From Bacteroidota bacterium (lineage in GTDB: Bacteria; Bacteroidota; Bacteroidia; Chitinophagales; Saprospiraceae): a stretch of 60,520 nucleotides of DNA. A program made the position numbers and the translations under genes. A model generated the notes under the pieces. That model saw nothing but the letters and a program-made list of their open reading frames with translations. It had not been told where the DNA came from and made no database searches. Numbering within the stretch: the stretch's first letter is position 1; each line of letters opens with the position of its first letter. This document shows positions 3,971-36,311 of this stretch, in pieces. The stretch covers positions 1 through 60,520 of the forward strand of contig DROJ01000138.1 in the NCBI GenBank assembly GCA_011321935.1. The letters are read 5' to 3'.

Positions 3971-4133
3971 TGAATTTTTTCGGATTTTTCGAGGGATTCA
4001 CATCCCTTGCCAAGAAATGCCGTCCCTGCGGGACTAGGATTTGGTGTCATCCATCCTAGTCCCGCAGGGACGGCATTTCCTAGCGAGGGATATGAATCCC
4101 TCGAAAAACCGAAAAAACTCACGAAAAAATTCA
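3971..4133. repeat. ~160-bp imperfect palindrome between convergent genes
   Basis: tgaattttttcgg...gccgtccctgcgggactaggat is mirrored by atcctagtcccgcagggacggc...cgaaaaaattca. The outermost right arm contains the stop codon (4131-4133) of the adhesin gene. Confidence 0.75.
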
Positions 4134-7100
4134 CTTCAAAATCACCACATCCCCTTCCCGAAATACCTCCTTTTCCACGCCACAAAAACGCACCCTTGCT
4201 TTCAGGTACCAGGCATAAACGCCCGGGTTCATCGTTTTGCCCTTAAACCCGCCGTCCCAACCATTTGCCGGCTGGCCGGCGAAAAAAACATGCGCCCCCC
4301 AGCGGTTGAAAACATGCAGCTCAAACGACTGAATATCAATGCCTTGCGCCGCATAAACTTGAAATTTGTCATTGACGCCGTCCCCGTTTGGCGAGAAGGC
4401 ATTGGGGATGTAAAAATAAGAATCCGGCTGCCCTTCCGCCCATTTTACGGTCGCTTCAAGCGCCTCCGTTGCGCATTCGTCGCTCACTTCAAAATGGTAA
4501 ATCCCCGCATCTTCCACGGGCATCCAAGCCTCGGACGAGCCATCCTCCCAACGCCAATTTACTGCCCCGGCATGGCTCAAAACGACGGGGCGGACGGTCG
4601 TTTGCGGGTCGTCGCAGGGCAGGGCATAGTCTTCCACCAAAACATCGAGCGGCGGTTTTTCAAGCACTTCCACGGCTTGCATTTCGGCGCAGCCGTTGGC
4701 GTCCTCCACGGCTATTTCGTAAATGCCGCTTTTCAAATTGGCAAAAACAGTTTGCGCCTGAAAGGCCCCTCCGCCGATAGCGCAACGGAAAGGCGGCGTC
4801 CCCGAAAGCGGAACCACCTCGATAGTCCCGTCCCCTTCGTCCGGGCAACTTTCGCTCGGCTGCAGCTCAAAAGACAGCGCCGGAAAAGCGGCCACACTGA
4901 TAAAAACCAGCGAATCGCAGCCCGCCTGATTGTTCAATTCCAAAACCATTTCGTCGCCGGGCAGGAGGCTAAAGCCCTGATAATCAAGGGTATCGCTTTC
5001 GCAAATATTCAATTCCAAGAAAGTGCTGTCCGCCTGCAAAATGCCTACCGACACCACCACCGTCGAATCGCAGCCCCGGAAAGAAGGCAGCACAAATTCC
5101 CTCGTTTCGCCTGCGGCAATTTCGGTGTTGTTGAACAAAATGCTCTCCCCGCCGCAAGCTTCAAATTGCAAAGTGGAAGGTTCGACAACTATCTCCTCGA
5201 CCGACACCACCACCGTCGAATCGCAGCCCAGAAAAGAGGGCAGCACAAATTCCCTCGTTTCGCCTGCGGCAATTTCGGTGTTGTTGAACAAAATATTTTC
5301 GCCGCCGCAGGCGGCAAATTGCAAAGCCGTTTCGATGGCTTGAAGGCAGGGACTATCCAGCAAAAAATCAACGACGGAAGTATCGCCGCAGCCTTCGATG
5401 GAAATATTTTCACTAAAAATAATCGGCGTATAATAGGCCGGCAGGCCGTTGAGGTCAATGCCCAATTGGTAAGCCCCGCCGGGCATTTCACCAAAAAAAT
5501 ACTGGCCGTTTTCGTTGCTGAAAGTATCGGCCAAAGCGGCCCCGTTTTCGGTCAGCAAAACAGGGATGCCGCTCAACAGGCTGTCGGCTGCGTCAACCTC
5601 CCCGTTGCCGTTGAGGTCAATCCAAACGTGGCCGCTCACCTCGCCCTGTTCGGGCAAAATGGAAATGGAGACGGCCTCCGAAACCGTTTCGCAGCCATAG
5701 ATACTGGTCAGGTGGACTTGGTAATCCCCCGTTTCGGTGGCCTCGTAATTGGCTGCGTTGCCCTCCGGCGCAGCGATGGGCGAGCCGTTCAGAAGCCATT
5801 GGTAATCAGCGACTTCGGGCAGGTCGGGCAGGCATATTTCTTTGCTTTCGCAAGCCGTGAAACAGCCCGAAACGAGGTTGCCCAAGCCCGGCGCATTGTG
5901 TATTTCTATCTCGTTGCTCTTGGCTGTGCAGCCAAAAGAATTGGTCGCCAAAACGAGGTAAGTGCCTCCGGCAAATGCACTGATCGAGGTGCCCGTTTGC
6001 CCCGTGTTCCAGAGATAATCATTTGCAGGGTCGGCATTTTCCACAAAAAAATCGGCCTCGCCGCCCGCACACAAGGGGCCCGGCGGATCGGACGAAATAG
6101 AGACCTCCGAGGGCAGGGCATGGACGGAAACCGGAAAGGGTCCGACTACCGCTGTGCAGCCCGAAACCACCTCGGTCACAGTGACCGAAAATTCGTGGTT
6201 GCCGACAGGCAGCAGGCCGCTGCCCTCCTCCGTCAGTGCCAATTGGCCGCCCGTTGTGCCGTCGGGCCACTGATAAAAATAACGCGGGTTGCCGTTCATT
6301 TCCAGATAGACCTCGTTGCCCTCGCAGGTCGAATAGCTGTTCTCGTGATAGGCGGTTGGCTGGCCAAATTCGTTGAGTTCGACTGCCCGGATGAGGGCAA
6401 CAGGGGCGGGCAAAACTTCCAATCCAACGGCAGGCGGGCTGTATTCACAACCTTTTGAATCGGTCAAAGTCACTTCGTAAATGCCTGCTTCAGAGGTAGT
6501 TATGCCCGAACCCGTTCCTCCGCTCGACCATGCCCAAGCCACTCCTCCGGGCGGTGCCTGAAAGCTGGCCTGCGTGCCTTCGCAAATGGGCGCAGGGTCG
6601 TCGGGGGTGATGTTGCCCGAGAGGTCATTGGCTTCGATGGACACGCTGGAGGTGAATGTTTGGCGGCAGCCGTAAATACTTTCGGCGGTCAGTGCCACCT
6701 CAAATTGCCCAGCAAAAGGGTAGGCGTGGTAGGTGTTTTCTTTTTGCGAAAAATTGGCGTCGCCGCTCCCTGCGTCGCCAAAATCCCAGCTAAAAACGGC
6801 CACGTCGGCGGGTGCGTCGGCCTCGAAGTGCAAGGCCGTTGCGGCGCAAAGAGCAGCGGGCGCACCGAAGCTGACCGCAGGCGGCGCATGGATGGTTATT
6901 TCTTTTGAAAATACGGCTGTGCAGCCCTCCGACGAAGTGGCCAACAGGGTGACATTATAGCTGCCCGGCGCAGAAAAAACGTGCTCGGGATGCTGCAAAC
7001 CGGAGGCATTGGCCGAGCCGCTTGCCGGGTCATCGAAGTCCCAATGCCAGCCCGAAATACTGGTGTTGGGCAGGTAATTGGAAACGTCCGTAAATCGGAC

Positions 7101-7977
7101 GGCAAGCCCGGTACAACTGCCTTCCACCTCGAATGCGGCCTGCAGGGGAACGACGATGTCGGCATGTTTTCCGATATAACAGGTTGGTGGACTGCCGTCC
7201 AAATTGGGAGTTTCGATAGCGAGAATGACTGAAAAAAAACCGGGATGGCTAAAGTTGTGGCTTGGATGTTCTTCAACGGAACTGCCATCCTGGAACTGCC
7301 ATTGCCAAGTGCCCGGAATGGCATTTACCGATAGGTTGTTGAATTGAAATTCATTGCAGGTCGTATTGTTCCACGTAAAATCCGCCGTTCCCTGCGGGTT
7401 GCAGGTGCTTGGTGAGGATACCACACATTGCCCGTTTTCACAATGCCCGCCCGCTGCTTCACAGTCAGGAATGTATATCGAATTGGATTGCCCGGTGCAG
7501 CCGTTTTCGTTGGTCACTACCACATAATAAATGCCGCTCTCATTGACGGCAAGAGTGGCTTGGCCGCTGCCCGTTTTAATGCCGTCCTTGTACCATTGGT
7601 ACAGGTAGCCGTTGCCTGTTTGCGTAGCGTAAATAGTAGCGCCTGCGCTTCCCGGGCATAAGCCTCCAACGAAAGAAGGAGCTGAAATAAAAACCTCCGG
7701 TTTCTCTTTTTCGAGGATGGTAAAATTGGTTTTGGAAGAGCAGCCGTTGCCGTCGTCGGCCTCCAGCACATAGCTCCCCGCAGTCAGTTGCGGAGCAGCT
7801 AAGTGGCTGACAACCAGTCCGTTTTGGTTCGTCCATTCATAGCTCTGGTAGCTTTGCAGGGTACTCACTTCGCTGGTTTCGCTTTCGCAAATAAAGACCG
7901 GGAAGTCAACTTCTGGCGCCTCCGGCGAACTTATGTTTACCTCAAAATCGGCCTCGCTTCCGCAGCCGTTCAGGTGG
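4131..7977 (-). CDS. C-terminal fragment of split adhesin (PKD/Ig-like repeats plus gliding-motility-associated C-terminal domain, CHU_C / T9SS type B)
   Basis: The track ORF 4131-7868 starts at a GTG. The same frame stays open to 7977 (IHLNGCGSEADFEVNISSPEAPEVDF...). The C-terminus YIPNAFSPNGDGVNDKFQV...FNRWG...WDG is the CHU_C signature. There is no signal peptide or credible start. Confidence 0.8.
5048..5327. repeat. 153-bp (51-codon) tandem duplication inside the adhesin CDS
   Basis: ccgacaccaccaccgtcgaatcgcagccc... occurs at 5048 and again at 5201. It encodes LQF(A/E)ACGGE(N/S)ILFNNTEIAAGETREFVLPSF(L/R)GCDSTVVVSV twice with very few differences. Confidence 0.85.
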
Positions 7978-8093
7978 ATAGTGGTACAAATCGTAATTAA
8001 CTAACCATTTAGTTTTTTGTTAAATGCCACATTATCAGGGATTTGGCGGACTAATCACTAGTCAACTAATTACTAATCACTGCAATAGTTGCA
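7978..8093. mobile_element. 116-bp half-copy (one arm) of the TAATCAC-word MITE, inserted in the adhesin gene
   Basis: tagtggtacaaatcgtaattaactaaccatttagttttttgttaaatgccacattatcagggatttggcggactaatcactagtcaactaattactaatcactgcaatagttgca is about 90 percent identical to the right arm at 547-659. It supplies the premature stop at 8066-8068 (read-through ...TATIAVISN*). Confidence 0.8.
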
Positions 8094-11000
8094 GTACCTG
8101 CCTGCTGCCAAAAAACCTCCACCTGCGCCGTTCCCTGCCCCCCGGTGATGGCCCCCGCCTGCGGCGGGCTGACCGACCATTCGTAATTTATATTTTCATA
8201 AAAACCGGTTTCGTAAAATGCGGAATTTTCGCGGCAAAGGGAGGCATCGCCGCTGATTTCGAGCCCGGGCAGCGGGGCGGGGTAAACGATAAACGACGGA
8301 GATTGGCAGCCCGGGCTGTTCCAGTCTTCTTGTGAGACAATGAGGGCATAAGGTGGCGAACTTGCCCATTTTACATTGATGGAGCGGCCTGTTTTTTCGT
8401 AAAAATCAATGCCGTTCCTGATGAACCAAGAATAGGTCGCATTTTCCAAATTGGAGGAAACTTGGTAGTTATAGGCCTGTCCGGGGCAGATGTTCATTTC
8501 GCCCAAAATGGTATCGAGGGGAGGGGGCAGCGCAAAGACTTCGACCTGCAGCCCCAACTCCCCGTTGCAGCTTTCCCCTGCGGGAAATGCGCGGACGGAA
8601 TAAGTGCCGGCACCGAAATCAAAGGTCGGATGGATGCCCGTAACGGGGGAGTCGGAAGCCCACATTTCCACCCCGTGCACGTCGTAAATAAACCAATCGG
8701 CTTCCACAAATGGGTAGCCCGAAACTTGGGAGTGGGTGAAGGAAGGACTGCTGCCCTCGCATATTTCTATCGGCCCGTTTATCAGCGTGGGCGGTCTCAT
8801 CTGCAGGGGCAGTTCGCCATTTCCGGCGCAGCCGAGGAAGCAGTTTTGGTAGCTTATTTTTATCAGGCCGGAGGCATTGTTGCCGTCGAAATCGCCCCAT
8901 CGGACGCTGATTTTCGGCGTGCCCTGTCCCTCCAAAATAAGCCCAAAAGAAGGCACTTCCCATTGATAATCAGCGCCTTGTACGGCTTCTATAAAATATT
9001 CCGTTTCAGTATTTGGGCAGACGATGACCTGCCCTTCGATGTCCGTTTGGTTGCTGATGATGGAGATTTTCTGCCGCACTGTTTTCGGGCAAATGTTGCC
9101 GGTGCAGGCCGATACTTGCAGGCTGACATCGCCCGAACTTCCGCCGTTCCATTGGATGGTCACGAAGTCGTCGGCCTGCCCGCCGCCGCTGATTACCGAG
9201 CCGTTCGGGCTGTTGCCCCACTCGTAATTTCCGCAAACAACATTGCTGCGGTAGGTCGCCGTATCGCCCTCGCAAACGGGGCCGAGGCAAAGGATTTCGG
9301 GTATCTCCGCATCCGATACCTCGACCCTAACGGAGGTGGTATCGCTGCAATAGCAGCCGTTGCGGGCGATGAGTTTCACTTCGTAAATGCCCGGTTCGTA
9401 AAAGGTGTGCAGCGCGTCTTTGACCAAAGAAACTGTGCCGTCGCCAAAGTCCCAAATGAAAGAACTGCTTGCCGTGCTGTTGTTGGTAAATTGGACTGTT
9501 TCGGCCTTGCAGAGATCAATGATATTATTGACAGCAGCAGGCACGGAGGTGAAAACGGCTTTTGGTTCTTTTAAAATTTCGATGCAGCGTTGGCCTTCTT
9601 GTTGGCAGTCGGGGGGGCAGGTGAGGGTGATGTATTCGGTGGTGGTTTCGCCGTTGCTGAGGTTGGTGTAGTTGATTTGGTATGGACCGGCAGGAAGTTC
9701 AGTGAATGGAACGAGGGAACCTGGCCCTTGATATTGCAGATATACCGTATCGCTTCTACTAAAACCTGTTTCTAAATTGATTAGGTTTATAAAAAATGGA
9801 TGTGACGGTGAACCACTGATAATTGGAGAAAAATCATTATTGTGGAGTCCCCGAAAAAAGATAATTCCGTCTTCTTCTCCGCATGAAGAAGGGCCGACTG
9901 AATTGGCAAAGGTTTCATAACGGGCTTCTGTGGTTATTTCAACCGAGCATGATTTGGTATTGCCCGTTGCATCCCTGATTTGATATTCATATACACCGAC
10001 ATTTAGAGAAGGTACAACATGGATCTCTCCACTATAAAACTGAGACCAGGACAAGCCGCCGTTTTCTGAAATTTCTATCCCTCCGGCATATGAGTTTCCT
10101 ATTATGAATGAGGCGCCAAGCTGATTTGTTGAATCAATGACCTGTGAAACTTGCCCACAATCCACCTGCAAATAATCCTTATCATCCAAGATAGAAACCT
10201 TGACCTCGCCGCTGCCTGCCTCGCCCCATTCCACGGTTACTTCGTTGCCATTGGCCGTGTAATCAACGCTGCCGTTTACCTCCCAAATGACGGGCATCTG
10301 CTCTGGGTTTTCCACCGAGTAGGTGACGGTGGAATTTTCGCAGACCTTTTCGCAGCTTTCGGGAGAGGAGGGGCAGAGGGAGGTGGATTGGATGGGGAGT
10401 ACAAGGTCGTTTGAAAAAATATACGGCTCGCTGTATTCCCATCCACAGGCGGCGGCATTGACGGCTATCCGAATATGTGTCCAGTTCAGTTCATCGCACC
10501 TTATTAATAAGGTATCGGAACTTGAACCCCCGACCAAGCATTCATTTTGCCCATTTTCGAGGTCAACATAGTTGGTGCCGTCGGCGGAGACCTGCCATTG
10601 GTACTCCGTTAACAAGCCTGCGGGGTCGTTGATCGGCTGCTCCAGTTCTGCGACAAATAGCATTTCTTCGCCCGGCGAAAAACAGCCGTCAAAATAAAAA
10701 TCAGAAACGTAAACATCGGTGTTGGTAAATCCGCAGTCGCAGGGGTCGGAGGCGTTTGGAATGCCGTCGTTGTCAATGTCGGAATCAATTTCATTCGCTA
10801 TTCCATCGCCGTCAAAATCACAGATAGCTCCACATGCGTCAGGGACGCAAGGTTCTAAATCATCTGGGTCAAAAAGCGGATCAGAGGCCAATACACCCGA
10901 GAAATAGCCATCGTTGTCAATGTCACCTCCGCCCGAGCAGCCCTGAGCGACAGTAAAGCAAGCACTCCCATTACAGCCCTGCGCATCCACCGTTTCGACG

Positions 11001-11236
11001 CAGTAAGTCCCCGGTGAAAAAATAGAAATAGCCCAAGGGGAAGCGCTGTTTTCAAATTCCCCGTCGGTGCTGCTCCAAGTGGTGGACGGATAGTATGTAT
11101 TCAGTCCGAGTAGCTGATAAGGGGCGTCGGGGCAGTAGCCTGTTGCTCCAATAATCACCGGGTCGCATTGCCCCACCAATAGAGCAGGCAGCCCGACCAT
11201 TGCAATCAACCAAAGAAAAAGCGCTCGTAAAACCAT
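8066..11236 (-). CDS. N-terminal fragment of split adhesin (signal peptide, thrombospondin-type-3-like Asp repeats, Ig/PKD-like modules)
   Basis: ORF 8066-11245, with ATG at 11234-11236 giving MVLRALFLWLIAMVGLPALLVGQ. Recurrent module ends of the form V.V.W...G...V.V....C. The last 9 codons and the stop are encoded by the inserted repeat. No sorting domain. Confidence 0.8.
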   Translation of the reverse strand: MVLRALFLWLIAMVGLPALLVGQCDPVIIGATGYCPDAPYQLLGLNTYYPSTTWSSTDGEFENSASPWAISIFSPGTYCVETVDAQGCNGSACFTVAQGCSGGGDIDNDGYFSGVLASDPLFDPDDLEPCVPDACGAICDFDGDGIANEIDSDIDNDGIPNASDPCDCGFTNTDVYVSDFYFDGCFSPGEEMLFVAELEQPINDPAGLLTEYQWQVSADGTNYVDLENGQNECLVGGSSSDTLLIRCDELNWTHIRIAVNAAACGWEYSEPYIFSNDLVLPIQSTSLCPSSPESCEKVCENSTVTYSVENPEQMPVIWEVNGSVDYTANGNEVTVEWGEAGSGEVKVSILDDKDYLQVDCGQVSQVIDSTNQLGASFIIGNSYAGGIEISENGGLSWSQFYSGEIHVVPSLNVGVYEYQIRDATGNTKSCSVEITTEARYETFANSVGPSSCGEEDGIIFFRGLHNNDFSPIISGSPSHPFFINLINLETGFSRSDTVYLQYQGPGSLVPFTELPAGPYQINYTNLSNGETTTEYITLTCPPDCQQEGQRCIEILKEPKAVFTSVPAAVNNIIDLCKAETVQFTNNSTASSSFIWDFGDGTVSLVKDALHTFYEPGIYEVKLIARNGCYCSDTTSVRVEVSDAEIPEILCLGPVCEGDTATYRSNVVCGNYEWGNSPNGSVISGGGQADDFVTIQWNGGSSGDVSLQVSACTGNICPKTVRQKISIISNQTDIEGQVIVCPNTETEYFIEAVQGADYQWEVPSFGLILEGQGTPKISVRWGDFDGNNASGLIKISYQNCFLGCAGNGELPLQMRPPTLINGPIEICEGSSPSFTHSQVSGYPFVEADWFIYDVHGVEMWASDSPVTGIHPTFDFGAGTYSVRAFPAGESCNGELGLQVEVFALPPPLDTILGEMNICPGQAYNYQVSSNLENATYSWFIRNGIDFYEKTGRSINVKWASSPPYALIVSQEDWNSPGCQSPSFIVYPAPLPGLEISGDASLCRENSAFYETGFYENINYEWSVSPPQAGAITGGQGTAQVEVFWQQAGTATIAVISN

Positions 11237-11452
11237 AGGAAACAAGGATTAAATATTTGTAAAAATAGAAGGGGAGGCCTCGCCTGCGGCGAGAAATAAG
11301 GGCGAGAGAAAAGGATAGTTTTTGTTGGAAAGGGAGATTGGAGGTGGCGTCAAAATCAGCACTGCCACCTTTTATATTATAAAATGGAATGTTTAACGAG
11401 GGTCAAAAAACGAGCCAGAGGGGTATCCTTAAACGTCCGGATTTTTTGGTCA

Positions 11453-11514
11453 GTCTCCTTGCCCTTCCGAAAGAGGGGGAATTAATTCCCCCTCTTTCGG
11501 AAGGGCAAGGAGAC
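11453..11514. repeat. 62-bp perfect-stem palindrome, GGGAAT family
   Basis: gtctccttgcccttccgaaagagggggaattaattccccctctttcggaagggcaaggagac. The same family occurs at 12896-12967, 13068-13107, 13207-13259, 16159-16202, 60108-60140 and 60213-60252. Confidence 0.85.
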
Positions 11515-11566
11515 GGGCTGAAATGTTCCGACTTTGGATGATTGAAATGATACCAAGAGGGGGCAT

Positions 11567-11600
11567 AAAAAAAGCGCAAGCGGAGCAGTTCCGTTTGCGC
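11567..11600 (-). terminator. rho-independent terminator after tRNA-Leu
   Basis: On the minus strand, the stem gcgcaa...ttgcgc is followed by a T7 run, directly 3' of the tRNA. Confidence 0.65.
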
Positions 11601-11605
11601 TTAGG

Positions 11606-11939
11606 TGCCCGGAGCGGGAATCGAACCCGCACGGCCATTACTGGCCACAGGATTTTCGTACCATCTACAACTTTCGCTGCCCCCGCTCCGATCGCTATCG
11701 GGATCGGGTTTGTGGTCTGGACTTTCTCTTCGCCTTGCCTTTCGGTTTAGGCGCCTCCCGTCAAGTCTCTACACCTTTCCCCCCGAGTACTCGGGGGAAC
11801 TTGGCTCGGGATTGCCATCCCGACTCAGGAGTCGGGAAAGGTTTCCCCGAATTTGAGAGGTTCTACTTCCCGGATTTCCCCGGGAGCACTCAAATTGATT
11901 GTTTAAGTCCTGCGTGTCTACCAATTCCACCACCCGGGC
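11606..11939 (-). tRNA. tRNA-Leu: tRNA-Leu(UAA), split by a group I intron (exons 11939-11905 and 11656-11606)
   Basis: The 35-nt 5' exon is GCCCGGGUGGUGGAAUUGGUAGACACGCAGGACUU. The 51-nt 3' exon is AAAAUCCUGUGGCCAGUAAUGGCCGUGCGGGUUCGAUUCCCGCUCCGGGCA. Joined, they give an 86-nt type II tRNA with anticodon loop CUUAAAA, a long variable arm, a GUUCGAUUC T-loop and a 7-bp acceptor stem. Confidence 0.9.
11657..11904 (-). ncRNA. group I intron (248 nt, no ORF) in the anticodon loop of tRNA-Leu(UAA)
   Basis: It starts AAACAAUCAAUUUGAGUG and ends GGUACG (terminal G). Exon ACUU|AAA can pair with intron UUUGAGU, giving a U.G pair at the 5' splice site. Core strings CUCAAAUUCGGGGAAACC, GGCAAUCCCGAGCCAAG, GGUGUAGAGACUUGACGGGAG, AGAGAAAGUCCA and GCAGCGAAAGUUGU match my recollection of the Anabaena tRNA-Leu intron core. 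Confidence 0.85.
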
Positions 11940-11993
11940 GGGTCGTGGTTTTGTACCGCTAAGGTAAAAAAAAAGCCCTCTCTTCAGAAGGCT

Positions 11994-12069
<76 letters not shown>

Positions 12070-12101: not shown

Positions 12102-12109
12102 CAAATATA
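12102..12109 (-). promoter_or_regulatory. candidate Bacteroidota -7 box (TAnnTTTG) for the tRNA-Gly/tRNA-Leu unit
   Basis: The minus strand reads TATATTTG about 33 nt upstream of the tRNA-Gly 5' end. This is a consensus match only. Confidence 0.3.
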
Positions 12110-12221
12110 CGGTTGTTTGAAATAATATGTCAAAATTTTTCGGGGTACTTTTTTTGAAAATTTTTCCACAAGCACCTGCCGTGCAAAAGGTACAAAGCAG
12201 GGGCGGGTATAGTTCCCGTTT

Positions 12222-12845
12222 TTATTTTTTTAGTTCGGCCAATACATCTTCCGAAGACAAAATGTCAGCCCCCATTTTTTTTAGTTTTATCAGGGCTTCG
12301 CCCAAATTTTGTTGGTCGGGGCCTTTGGTGGCATCTTCGATGATGGCTGTTTGATAGCCCATTTCAATTGCATCGGCGGCGGTGTTCACGAGGGCATTGC
12401 TTTCGTTGAGACCTGCGAGGTACAGCTTTTTTATTTTGTTTTTTTGAAAATGGGCGTTCAGGCCCGTATCCCGTTTTTTGTTTTTACCAAAAAAAGCAGA
12501 GTGGGGGAGGCATTGGTGGTCAGTGCCCATCAAGGCCGTAAAGTGGATTTTTTCTTGGTTCAAGTTCATCGGATGCTCTGCGCCGAAGCTGCCTTTTATG
12601 CAGAAATAATGTTTCAATAAAATCTTTTCGCCCATCAGGTCGAGTACCTGCCCGGGGCGACGCCAGGGGTAGTTGGCAACGAACATTTTGTGATTTGCCG
12701 GCAGGCTGAAATTGGCGGCGGCAAGGTGGCCGAAATGTGGCAACAGGCGGTTGATGACGGGGATTACCTTTTCGCTTTCGGGTATCTCCGCAGCACCGAG
12801 GGGCAACAGGTCAACTTGTAGGCCGATGAATAGGAGTGCTTTCAT
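12222..12845 (-). CDS. isochorismatase/nicotinamidase (PncA)-fold protein lacking the canonical catalytic residues
   Basis: ORF trimmed to ATG 12843-12845 (MKALLFIGLQVD...). It is collinear with PncA (ALL..LQ.D, PANH..F, SAFF, GL.....V..A.DA...GY), but the Asp/Lys/Cys triad positions read Gly/Met/Ala. Confidence 0.65.
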   Translation of the reverse strand: MKALLFIGLQVDLLPLGAAEIPESEKVIPVINRLLPHFGHLAAANFSLPANHKMFVANYPWRRPGQVLDLMGEKILLKHYFCIKGSFGAEHPMNLNQEKIHFTALMGTDHQCLPHSAFFGKNKKRDTGLNAHFQKNKIKKLYLAGLNESNALVNTAADAIEMGYQTAIIEDATKGPDQQNLGEALIKLKKMGADILSSEDVLAELKK

Positions 12846-12895
12846 TGGTAAGCTGTTCAAATAATAGAATGATAAAACCTTGCTCCACTTTTGAG

Positions 12896-13356
12896 CCCCC
12901 GTCTCCGTGCCCTTCCGAAAGAGGGGGAATTTATTCCCCCTCTTTCGGAAGGGCACGGAGACGGGGGCTTGGGGTTCGATATTTTTTCTAAAAAACTAAT
13001 TTCGGGTCAATTTCAAAAGCCGATCTTCGCCCCTCTCGCCGCCGATTTTTCGCGAAGCGCAGCCAGGAATAAATTCCCCCTCTTTCGGAAGGGCACGGAG
13101 ACGGGGGTTTGGATTCGGTGTTTTTTCCAAAAAAACTGATTTTTGATTAAATTCAAAAGCCGATTTTCGCCCCTCTCGCCGCCGATTTTTCGCGAAGCGC
13201 AGCCAGGAGAGAGAGGGGGAATAAATTCCCCCTCTTTCGGAAGGGCACGGAGACGGGGGTTTGGATTCGGTGTTTTTTCAAAAAAAACTGATTTTTGATT
13301 AAATTCAAAAGCCGATCTTCGCCCCTCTCGCCGCCGATTTTTCGCGAAGCGCAGCC
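12896..13356. repeat. 3-unit tandem array (140-170 bp units): GGGAAT-family hairpin + spacer + copy of the last 52 nt of ribH
   Basis: tcaaaagccgat(c/t)ttcgcccctctcgccgccgatttttcgcgaagcgcagcc occurs at 13013-13064, 13153-13204 and 13305-13356. The last copy is the real ribH 3' end. Each copy is preceded by ...ggaagggcacggagacggggg(t/c)ttgg(a/g)ttcgg.... Confidence 0.85.
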
Positions 13357-13820
13357 ATGCGGATGGCACTCACTGCGGCCTCCACGCCTTTGTTGCCGTG
13401 CTTGCCGCCTGCCCGGTCGAGTGCCTGTTGGTGGGTGTTGGGGGTGAGCAATCCAAAAATGCAGGGGATGCCCAATGCCAGTCCCAAACCGGTGAGGCCA
13501 GTGGCCACGGCATGGTTGATATACTCGTCGTGCTTGGTCTCGCCTTTGATGACTGCGCCGAGGCAGATGAGGGCGTTGAGCCTTTTGCCGGAGGCGAGTG
13601 TTTTTGCACCGAAGGGCAGTTCAAAAGCCCCCGGTACTTGGGCAACAAATATGTTTTCCTCTTTTGCGCCATGCTTGACGAGCGTTTCAAAACAGCCTTC
13701 GTAAAGGGCATGGGTGATGTCGGCGTTCCAGTCGGAAACGACAATCCCGAAGCGCATGTCTTCGGCGGAAGGGATGTTTTTTTCGTTGTAATCGGAAAGG
13801 TTTTTTAATGCGGAAGCCAT
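13305..13820 (-). CDS. ribH: 6,7-dimethyl-8-ribityllumazine synthase
   Basis: ORF trimmed to ATG 13818-13820. RFGIVVSDWNADIT, QVPGAFELP, LICLGAVIKGETKHDEYI and AGGKHGNKGVEAA are typical RibH motifs. The C-terminal 16 codons lie in the tandem repeat. Confidence 0.9.
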   Translation of the reverse strand: MASALKNLSDYNEKNIPSAEDMRFGIVVSDWNADITHALYEGCFETLVKHGAKEENIFVAQVPGAFELPFGAKTLASGKRLNALICLGAVIKGETKHDEYINHAVATGLTGLGLALGIPCIFGLLTPNTHQQALDRAGGKHGNKGVEAAVSAIRMAALREKSAARGAKIGF

Positions 13821-35738: not shown

Positions 35739-36311
35739 TCACCTTTCCTTGCTTTTAGAATACGCTTTGATGCCTTCTTTTTCGAGCATTGTTTTCAGCT
35801 TTTGCCGTGCTGAAGACAAGTGCCATTTGGAAGTGCCGTCGCTGATGTTCAATAGTTCCCCGATTTCTTTGTGGCTGTACCCGTCTATGGCAAAAAGGTT
35901 GAATACTTTCATGCTCATGGGCGGCAGTTGGCGGATCATTGCTTCCAGTTGAGAGGCATCAAATTGCAGGTCGGCAGTATTCAGTTCCACCATTCCTTTT
36001 TGGTTTTTGTGTTCCGTAAAATCCCTGCTCTCGATCAGTTCGTTCACCTTCCTGTTTTTCCTGAAATCGTCAATCAGCGTATTTATCATGATCCGCCTGA
36101 TCCATGCGTCAAAAGGCACTTCCGGTTTGTATTTTTCCAATTTTTGGATGACCTTCAAAAAGCCTTCGTTGACCATTGCCGCGGCTTCTTCCTCCGACCT
36201 CCGATAGCGCATGCAAACGCCCATCAAGACGTTGAAACAACGTTTGTACATCAGGAACTGCGCCCGTCTGTCGCCCTGCTCGGCATCATGTAGGAGTTGT
36301 TGGTCAATCAT
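35739..36311 (-). CDS. ECF-subfamily RNA polymerase sigma-70 factor
   Basis: 190 aa. Region 2 (FDAWIRRIMINTLIDDFRK) and region 4 HTH (GYSHKEIGELLNISDGTSKWHLSSARQKL). Confidence 0.9.
   Translation of the reverse strand: MIDQQLLHDAEQGDRRAQFLMYKRCFNVLMGVCMRYRRSEEEAAAMVNEGFLKVIQKLEKYKPEVPFDAWIRRIMINTLIDDFRKNRKVNELIESRDFTEHKNQKGMVELNTADLQFDASQLEAMIRQLPPMSMKVFNLFAIDGYSHKEIGELLNISDGTSKWHLSSARQKLKTMLEKEGIKAYSKSKER

Follow-up and report, generated by a model that had tools for sequence, protein, structure and literature searches.

The DNA analysed here, referred to as the window, is a stretch of 60,520 nucleotides (nt) from contig DROJ01000138.1 of the Bacteroidota genome assembly GCA_011321935.1, and it carries a tRNA-Leu(UAA) gene that is interrupted between anticodon nucleotides U34 and A35. 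We consider it very probable that the insertion is a 248-nt group I intron of the IC3 type, devoid of any open reading frame (ORF), which resides in a chromosomal tRNA gene of a Saprospiraceae-like member of the Bacteroidota and splices itself out of the precursor to give the mature tRNA. The intron is a further example of a known and widespread class of introns at this site, and not a cyanobacterial trait out of place.

The split tRNA gene and its ribozyme fold

When introns were allowed, ARAGORN reported the genomic sequence as tRNA-Leu (taa) i(36,248), extending from 11939 to 11606 on the minus strand (positions are those of the window throughout). The gene was divided into three segments:

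11905..11939, minus strand: 5' exon of tRNA-Leu(UAA), 35 nt, GCCCGGGTGGTGGAATTGGTAGACACGCAGGACTT, whose last nucleotide, U34 (11905), supplies the U of the U·G wobble; ARAGORN and sequence
11657..11904, minus strand: group I intron, 248 nt, ORF-less, with the terminal guanosine (omega-G) at 11657; RF00028 match, conserved columns and covariation-supported fold
11606..11656, minus strand: 3' exon of tRNA-Leu(UAA), 51 nt, AAAATCCTGTGG...CCGGGCA, beginning with A35; ARAGORN and sequence

ARAGORN analysis of the spliced sequence gave an 86-nt type II tRNA-Leu(taa) with a long variable arm and the anticodon loop CUUAAAA, and the canonical cloverleaf, the variable arm and discriminator A73 identify the product as a type II bacterial tRNA-Leu. 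The 3' exon includes the variable arm, the T arm and the discriminator A, and CCA is incompletely encoded. The coordinates, segment lengths, insertion site and spliced product proposed in an initial annotation of this DNA were therefore exact. In its default mode, ARAGORN missed the gene, and tRNA-Gly was the sole tRNA called over the window. No homing-endonuclease ORF was found in the intron, which at 248 nt is too short to hold one; the only mechanical ORFs that overlap it, 11605-11856 on the plus strand and 11769-12038 on the minus strand, both extend past it, in line with the earlier statement that there is no ORF inside.

A search with the Rfam model Intron_gpI (RF00028), which had been suggested as a check, matched 11703-11914 on the minus strand over the full model (1-253) with a score of 49.8 bits and E = 1.1e-11 (601 nt searched). 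The curated gathering cut-off of this model is 50 bits, and the match was reported under an E-value threshold; because the score lies 0.2 bit lower than the cut-off, an Rfam scan of the whole window at gathering thresholds listed no intron. In the Williams 2020 preprint (doi 10.1101/2020.01.27.920355), covariance-model cut-offs of 18-20 bits were used, and 40 bits was quoted as the value then suggested.

We therefore examined the fold in an alignment of 59 ORF-less introns at the same site (the window copy and 58 others, collected from genomes and metagenomes in public databases), retaining 10 nt of exon at both ends of every intron. Unguided RNAalifold analysis recovered the anticodon stem, P1, P2, P3, P4, P5, P6a, P8, P9.0/P9a and P9, with compensatory changes at 44 of 61 pairs. 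P6 and the P7 pseudoknot (5' G(A)GACUU with AAGUCC) were added by hand, and in the resulting full P1-P9 structure, including the P3/P7 pseudoknot, 96.3% of cells were standard pairs and 46 of the 66 pairs showed changes on both sides. The covariation score was 0.533, compared with 0.175 for column shuffles (0 of 500 reached 0.533) and no more than 0.121 for slid partners. Of the 107 columns conserved to 90% or more in the 58 other introns, the window copy departed from the consensus nucleotide at none. It formed 63 of the 66 model pairs, and those it lacked, three in number, are in variable helix tips. Its own minimum-free-energy fold reproduced P2, P4-P5a, P6a, P7, P8 and P9 (z = -3.3). The helices, all on the minus strand, are as follows:

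11889..11907: P1, exon CUU and intron AA(A) (11907-11903) with internal guide UUGAG (11893-11889); helix 98% paired
11864..11888: P2 hairpin with GAAA tetraloop L2 at 11878-11875; compensatory changes at 10 of 10 pairs, also in the single-sequence fold
11855..11860: P3 5' strand CCUCUC, partner GGGAGG at 11759-11754; 6 of 6 pairs change on both sides, 99.7% paired
11805..11851: P4-P5-P5a domain, with P4 UUCGGGG/UCCCGAG, J4/5 AAA, P5 CC/GG and then the P5a hairpin; RNAalifold and single-sequence fold
11774..11804: P6/P6a hairpin; all P6a pairs compensatory
11763..11769: P7 5' strand G(A)GACUU with bulged A, partner AAGUCC at 11724-11719; 100% paired in the 59 introns, P3/P7 pseudoknot
11731..11753: P8 hairpin with a CCUAA...CAAGG internal loop; alignment fold
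11667..11708: P9 region, P9.0/P9a hairpin (11708-11681) and P9 hairpin (11680-11667); compensatory changes at 10 of 10 pairs

U is the last nucleotide of the 5' exon and G that of the intron, as had been noted initially, and the splice-site wobble U11905·G11891 is a U·G in 59 of 59 aligned introns; the column of the terminal guanosine is invariant. In P1, which is closed by a 7-nt loop (CAAUCAA), exon CUU and intron AAA pair with the intron guide UUUGAG. This core of the P1 pairing drawn in the initial annotation holds; the additional A-U pair drawn there (exon A-4 with intron U17) competes with the anticodon-stem pair and with P2, which is a minor point. All six pairs of P3 covary, from CCUCUC/GGGAGG in the window to GGAGUC/GGCUCC in Gammaproteobacteria. 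A pair of P6 (alignment columns 167/261) is UA in 34 sequences, CG in 19 and GC in 6, and the last pair of P7, which by analogy with Tetrahymena and Azoarcus we take to be the guanosine-binding helix, switches from U-A to A-U in 6 of the 59 introns. The loop in P8 resembles a tetraloop receptor and may act as one, and the P9 hairpin is capped by a GAAA tetraloop, L9, at 11675-11672. The exon anticodon stem also covaries, at three of its five pairs, which agrees with the requirement for exon pairing in the Anabaena precursor that is named in the title of Zaug et al. (1993), as cited in PMC3984707.

The helix map shows the IC3-type architecture, with P2 present, no P5abc extension, a short P9, and a GAAA tetraloop in each of L2 and L9. 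For the subgroup name we follow the GISSD assignment of the Leu intron class as quoted by Williams; it does not come from a subgroup-specific model. Judged by its fold, core and conserved columns, which appear intact, this is a bona fide IC3-like group I intron, as first proposed, and it is probably functional.

In the splicing pathway that we envisage, tRNA-Leu would be transcribed together with, or just after, an upstream tRNA-Gly(GCC), and the precursor would fold into the P1-P9 ribozyme, the fold itself being backed by covariation. P1 would hold U34, in the wobble that we observe, opposite the internal guide UUUGAG, and an exogenous guanosine bound in P7 would attack the phosphodiester after U34. 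The terminal G of the intron (11657) would then replace this guanosine, the freed 3' OH of the 5' exon would attack after 11657, and the guide UUU, earlier paired with the first AAA of the intron, could pair with AAA of the 3' exon as P10. Exon ligation would restore the anticodon loop CUUAAAA in the 86-nt tRNA-Leu(UAA), the reader of UUA codons. UUA accounts for 32 of the 776 leucine codons in 13 ORFs of the window, and the organism therefore needs a tRNA-Leu(UAA). Self-splicing is predicted here from sequence features, and the split gene is presumably present in a single copy, the window showing 60 kb of the genome.

An alternative is that the split gene is a decaying pseudogene and that an intron-less tRNA-Leu(UAA) elsewhere does the work. 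The window covers only part of the genome, and the intron would have lost its homing-endonuclease ORF, both of which could be taken to favour decay. However, there are no deviations at the 107 conserved columns, 63 of 66 helical pairs are intact, and the exons form a perfect cloverleaf. Absence of an ORF is the condition of the majority of introns at this site (the 58 sequences of up to 330 nt in the aligned set), and in relatives this split gene is likewise retained in tandem with tRNA-Gly, which argues that it is the standard copy. We therefore regard decay as very unlikely, and favour a functional, self-splicing tRNA gene.

Genomic neighbourhood and host

The tRNA-Leu gene shares its strand with tRNA-Gly(GCC), starts 55-57 nt downstream of it and is flanked by candidate transcription signals:

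12104..12133, minus strand: sigma-70-like promoter match TTGACA-18-TATATT upstream of tRNA-Gly; consensus match only
11994..12069, minus strand: tRNA-Gly(GCC), directly upstream of tRNA-Leu; ARAGORN and Rfam
11566..11602, minus strand: terminator-like hairpin (-16.9 kcal/mol) followed by U7, directly 3' of tRNA-Leu; ViennaRNA fold and sequence

Among the protein genes, 4131-7868 (minus strand) encodes a protein of 1245 residues that combines PKD repeats with a CHU_C type IX secretion sorting domain, and 8066-11245 a cargo-type PKD protein. The flanks also carry genes for an isochorismatase-like protein, for lumazine synthase and for a pyruvate-dehydrogenase-type E1 component, and the gene of an ECF sigma factor is found farther off (35739-36311). 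The mechanical ORF 12222-12956 (minus strand) begins at a GTG within a palindromic repeat; in an ENA assembly the gene begins at ATG 12845 and encodes a protein of 207 residues of the isochorismatase family. Type IX secretion cargo beside the gene points to the Bacteroidota, and the CHU_C protein, the PKD cargo and the ECF sigma factor bear out the initial description of a Bacteroidota-type genome.

The tandem of tRNA-Gly(GCC) and split tRNA-Leu(UAA) is also present, among the matches listed, in Phaeodactylibacter luteus, Phaeodactylibacter sp., two Saprospiraceae metagenome-assembled genomes (MAGs) and two Cytophagales MAGs, and on three metagenome contigs; no protein-gene synteny with the Bacteroidota loci was found beyond the tRNA genes. 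The exons are 96.5% identical to those of the Saprospiraceae MAG L061 (CAZNYK010000057.1). Thus, the host is of the Bacteroidota type, and the tRNA exons, intron similarity and synteny indicate, indirectly, that it is Saprospiraceae-like.

The initial annotation had also raised the possibility of a contaminant or an assembly chimera, in which the split gene would be foreign to a Bacteroidota-type contig. A palindromic repeat family and a tandem array adjoin the tRNA cluster (11453-11517 and 12898-13357), and this array is where two ENA contigs, k127_70452 and k127_70124, begin or terminate; both points could be taken to favour a chimera. Proteins of the window were, however, found identically on contigs of a hydrothermal-vent metagenome (assembly ENA ERZ940665) and also in a second sequencing run, Logan SRR7787185. 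The ENA contig k127_70124 corresponds to window positions 13115-8222 at 99.98% identity and carries, contiguously, the isochorismatase-like gene, tRNA-Gly, tRNA-Leu i(36,248) and the PKD gene, so that the split gene is physically linked to Bacteroidota-type genes in the ENA assembly too. Moreover, the exons and the intron are both nearest to Saprospiraceae sequences among the matches listed. A chimeric or contaminant origin is therefore so improbable that we set it aside in favour of a resident Bacteroidota gene.

The repeats are of some interest in themselves. A perfect palindrome of about 62 nt (GTCTCCTTGCCCTTCCGAAAGAGGGGGAATT/AATTCCCCC...GGAGAC) lies at 11453-11517, just past the tRNA-Leu terminator, and recurs at 95% identity across the tRNA cluster at 12898-12962, with half-copies at 13066-13107 and 13209-13259. 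The half-copies are located within a three-copy tandem array of 140-152 nt (12926-13357), upstream of ribH, inside which both ENA contigs break. With six matches against none expected by chance, the family looks like a repetitive extragenic palindrome (REP) or a miniature inverted-repeat transposable element (MITE). In addition, two convergent matches to the Acido-Lenti-1 RNA motif (RF01687), at 3990-4035 (plus strand) and 4058-4103 (minus strand), scored 37.5 and 38.6 bits (gathering score 37). They are 22 nt apart and adjoin the 3' end of the CHU_C gene 4131-7868; the motif is named after Acidobacteria and Lentisphaerae, not Bacteroidota.

Distribution of same-site introns and origin of the window copy

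The initial annotation had treated the intron and its site as essentially a cyanobacterial and plastid trait, and hence surprising in this genome. That view is not upheld. We scanned 185,579 species genomes with the pattern AGAGACTYGACGGN{15,45}GAGARAGTCCAGAC, biased to the non-cyanobacterial CCAGAC signature, and recovered at least 118 loci; the absence of cyanobacteria among them is uninformative, as the pattern was chosen to avoid cyanobacteria swamping the results. ARAGORN analysis of these loci identified at least 63 non-cyanobacterial genomes in which tRNA-Leu(taa) is split exactly at i(36). Most of the matches listed were from Gammaproteobacteria (Steroidobacter, Peristeroidobacter, Salinisphaera, Methylobacter, Thiohalobacter, Pseudomonadales and others). 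The list also included at least three Rhodospirillales MAGs of the Alphaproteobacteria, Bacteroidota (L030, L061, L072, L080 and L110; Phaeodactylibacter, Saprospiraceae and Cytophagales), Salinibacter (L095), and at least four Bacillota MAGs (L019, L035, L088 and L105).

A metagenome scan with the exon-intron junction of the window gave 12 more split tRNA-Leu(UAA) genes, none of them closer than about 75% identity in full pairwise alignment, and no independent copy of the window locus. A core-pattern search of IMG/VR returned four viral contigs, three of which had split tRNA-Leu(UAA) genes. In the remaining loci of the genome scan, related introns were placed by automatic ARAGORN isotypes in genes for tRNA-Met/fMet/Ile2(CAU), Arg(CCU), Thr(UGU), Lys(UUU), Leu(CAA/CAG), His and selenocysteine (SeC). 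Introns with the same core that automatic calls of isotype and position put in such other tRNA genes (including L003 from IMG/VR, L008, L039, L042, L076, L089 and L123) came from Alphaproteobacteria, Gemmatimonadota, Acidobacteriota, Nitrospirota, Saccharibacteria, Actinomycetota, Planctomycetota and a MAG labelled as Chlamydiae.

A tRNA-Leu intron was reportedly described in a gammaproteobacterium by Vepritskiy and colleagues in 2002, in J. Bacteriol. Group I introns that interrupt tRNA genes were listed in a 2014 review as cyanobacterial, with a few alpha- and beta-proteobacterial cases (PMC4033280). The Williams survey, which also speaks against a cyanobacterial trait, found 5,292 tRNA genes split by group I introns in 80,413 bacterial genomes, with 'Leu.3Ug' as one of four classical types, and tabulated the types by phylum. 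Our literature search, which did not extend to the phylum counts of that survey, returned no paper linking the tRNA-Leu(UAA) intron with Bacteroidota.

To place the window intron, a neighbour-joining tree was built from 214 conserved columns with 100 bootstraps, and identities were calculated over conserved columns. Two cyanobacterial sequences were compared: Synechococcus Sel1, from the Williams supplement, and Anabaena, used only as a secondary comparison. With 71% bootstrap support, the window intron clustered with one metagenome sequence and the introns of two Phaeodactylibacter loci, and this group was nested in a clade where Bacteroidota, Alphaproteobacteria, Salinibacter and Ncf2 occur together (63%). 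The introns of Gammaproteobacteria stood apart, and both cyanobacterial sequences fell outside the clade of all non-cyanobacterial Leu introns. Identity to the window intron was 79% for Phaeodactylibacter, 58% for Synechococcus Sel1 and 61% for Anabaena; the closest ribozyme among the matches listed was that of L061, with 85% (197 of 233 aligned positions). The initial annotation had called the intron closely similar to that of Anabaena: the core motifs it quoted are indeed present, but the close resemblance is confined to the universal core, and identity over conserved columns is only 58-61% to cyanobacterial introns, compared with 79% to Phaeodactylibacter and, for the ribozyme part, 85% to L061.

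These results bear directly on a recent horizontal transfer of the intron, or of the whole tRNA gene, from a cyanobacterium or plastid. In its favour, cyanobacterial tRNA-Leu(UAA) introns occupy the identical insertion site and have the universal core motifs in common with the window intron. The identities, however, are higher to Phaeodactylibacter and to the Saprospiraceae MAG than to either cyanobacterium, the cyanobacterial sequences lie outside the non-cyanobacterial clade, the exons are Bacteroidota-like, and the Gly-Leu tandem is conserved in Bacteroidota. We judge the chance of such a transfer to be minimal; like contamination and pseudogene decay, it is disfavoured. The intron tree, which had been suggested as a check, speaks against recent cyanobacterial transfer.

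On this tree the intron belongs to what appears to be a non-cyanobacterial lineage of same-site introns, some of which have HNH ORFs and some of which are found in phage tRNA genes. The loop of P1, which is 7 nt long in the window, holds a 152-residue HNH-like ORF in the 742-nt intron of L061. A Pfam search of this ORF matched no family; its motifs, CxxC...HH...CPNCH, resemble those of ORFs that Pfam did match. The introns of 680-740 nt in relatives contain ORFs of 146-186 residues with HNH motifs, two of three of which match Pfam HNH models (HNH/HNH_3 in L010 and L001).

The HNH ORFs differ in strand and position. Those of Gammaproteobacteria are antisense to the tRNA (L010, L016, L036, L040, L062, L083, L085, L092 and L094), and those of Saprospiraceae, Bacilli and phage are on the sense strand (L061, L019, L035, L001 and L004). 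In L061 the ORF occupies the loop of P1, and in the phage copies it comes immediately ahead of P7, in the P6 region. Such differences suggest that ORFs may have invaded independently. In the IMG/VR contigs L001, L002 and L004, the split tRNA-Leu(UAA) gene lies beside further phage tRNA genes, and exon and intron both have a match in the 735-kb record of an uncultured 'huge phage' (LR756501.1/LR756503.1, 190325-190528); according to a 2014 review, all phage group I introns then known were in protein-coding genes (PMC3984707). In a MAG labelled Klebsiella pneumoniae (L092, CAMBTO010000064.1), an 11.7-kb contig carries a 702-nt tRNA-Leu(UAA) intron with an HNH ORF; the exons there are similar to exons from environmental Gammaproteobacteria, and the label may be a binning error.

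The window copy is not autonomously mobile, because it has no homing endonuclease. It could, however, have been acquired by homing from a phage-borne or bacterial HNH-encoding intron and have lost the ORF later, in place of a long vertical descent. In keeping with this, L061, its nearest relative among the matches listed, has the HNH-like ORF in L1, two phage contigs (L001 and L004) have type II tRNA-Leu(UAA) genes with HNH-encoding introns, and the intron clade mixes Bacteroidota, Alphaproteobacteria and Salinibacter. Conversely, the present ORF-less copy cannot move, and within Saprospiraceae intron similarity follows exon similarity, L061 being nearest and Phaeodactylibacter next. We hold such an acquisition to be possible, if somewhat improbable; it concerns history only and is compatible with the splicing mechanism that we favour. 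Most likely, the intron was inherited within Saprospiraceae and not recently acquired from cyanobacteria, a mode that we infer from these patterns, and the sequences seem to fit descent within this family with loss, or never gain, of an endonuclease ORF. A broader proposal is that the U34/A35 intron is not a cyanobacterial invention, and either predates by far the split between cyanobacteria and plastids, or is a pan-bacterial mobile element still spread by HNH endonucleases and phage, of which the window copy would be an ORF-less survivor. We regard this as speculative and rather unlikely.

Several points weigh against our account of the locus. Splicing and expression are predictions from the sequence. 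The RF00028 score falls just short of the curated gathering threshold. A terminator-like hairpin (11994-11973) lies between tRNA-Gly and tRNA-Leu, and no promoter for tRNA-Leu alone was identified, which makes co-transcription uncertain. With 60 kb in view, an intron-less second tRNA-Leu(UAA) may exist elsewhere in the genome. Assignment of the host to a family is indirect, since it comes from exons, intron similarity and synteny and not from marker-gene phylogeny, and the window has no rRNA. Finally, the deeper nodes of the neighbour-joining tree are weak (14-63% bootstrap), and on such a tree vertical inheritance within Bacteroidota is inseparable from repeated homing.

Significance and comparison with known systems

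The main practical lesson of this locus is one of annotation. Both default ARAGORN and the Rfam gathering threshold miss the split tRNA-Leu gene, and the genome would then seem to lack the one tRNA that can read UUA; MAGs of Bacteroidota, Gammaproteobacteria and other groups need tRNA calling that takes introns into account. The wider significance claimed initially was overrated. The locus is one more point in a wide, mostly unremarked spread of the 'cyanobacterial' tRNA-Leu intron over phyla and phages, and on its own leaves the picture drawn from public genomes and the 2020 survey unchanged. That spread bears on the reading of the intron shared by cyanobacteria and plastids as an exclusive ancient trait, and a non-cyanobacterial origin or pan-bacterial mobility, if true, would reopen the classic 'ancient intron' argument based on confinement to cyanobacteria and plastids. 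A single locus does not decide between an ancient intron and one spread by homing endonucleases and phages.

The cyanobacterial tRNA-Leu(UAA) intron (Kuhsel et al. 1990, as cited in PMC3984707) shares with the window intron the gene, the U34/A35 site, the U·G 5' splice site and the terminal G, the IC3-type P1-P9 organization and nearly its length (249 nt compared with 248 nt). The core motifs AAAYUCRGGGAAACC, GGCAAUCCYGAGCCAAG, AGAGACU.GACGGGAG and, in L9, GAAAG are common to both. Unlike the window intron, it resides in another host phylum and lies outside the clade, at 58-61% identity over conserved columns, and the signature of P7, J8-7 and P9.0, which is GUAGAGACUUGACGG...AGAGAAAGUCCAGACCACAAA in the window, is GCAGAGACU(A/C)GACGG...AGUCCAAUUCUC in cyanobacteria.

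By its definition, the 'Leu.3Ug' class of Williams agrees with the window intron in the tRNA (tRNA-Leu), anticodon-loop position 3 and the combination of U-1 with omega-G. Its seed Ncf2.Leu.3Ug has the non-cyanobacterial CCAGACCACAAA signature seen in the window, and is 71% identical to the window intron, although it comes from a different genome. Closer still are the cultured Phaeodactylibacter luteus KCTC 42180 (NZ_VOOR01000010.1, L030), Phaeodactylibacter sp. (L110) and L061, which have the same gene, the same site and an upstream tRNA-Gly(GCC). In contrast to the window, the Phaeodactylibacter loci have two upstream tRNA-Gly copies and introns of 233-234 nt, and L061 differs by its longer intron, of 742 nt and with an HNH-like ORF lodged in the loop of P1, compared with 248 nt and no ORF; the flanking protein genes in all three are not syntenic with those of the window. 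The Azoarcus tRNA-Ile(CAU) intron, an IC3 model ribozyme of solved structure, resembles the window intron in its small IC3 fold, its GAAA tetraloops in L2 and L9, and the P7 signature GUAGAGACU...AGUCCAG, which the two have in common; it differs in being 55% identical, and in its insertion into another tRNA, after position 36/37 of the anticodon loop.

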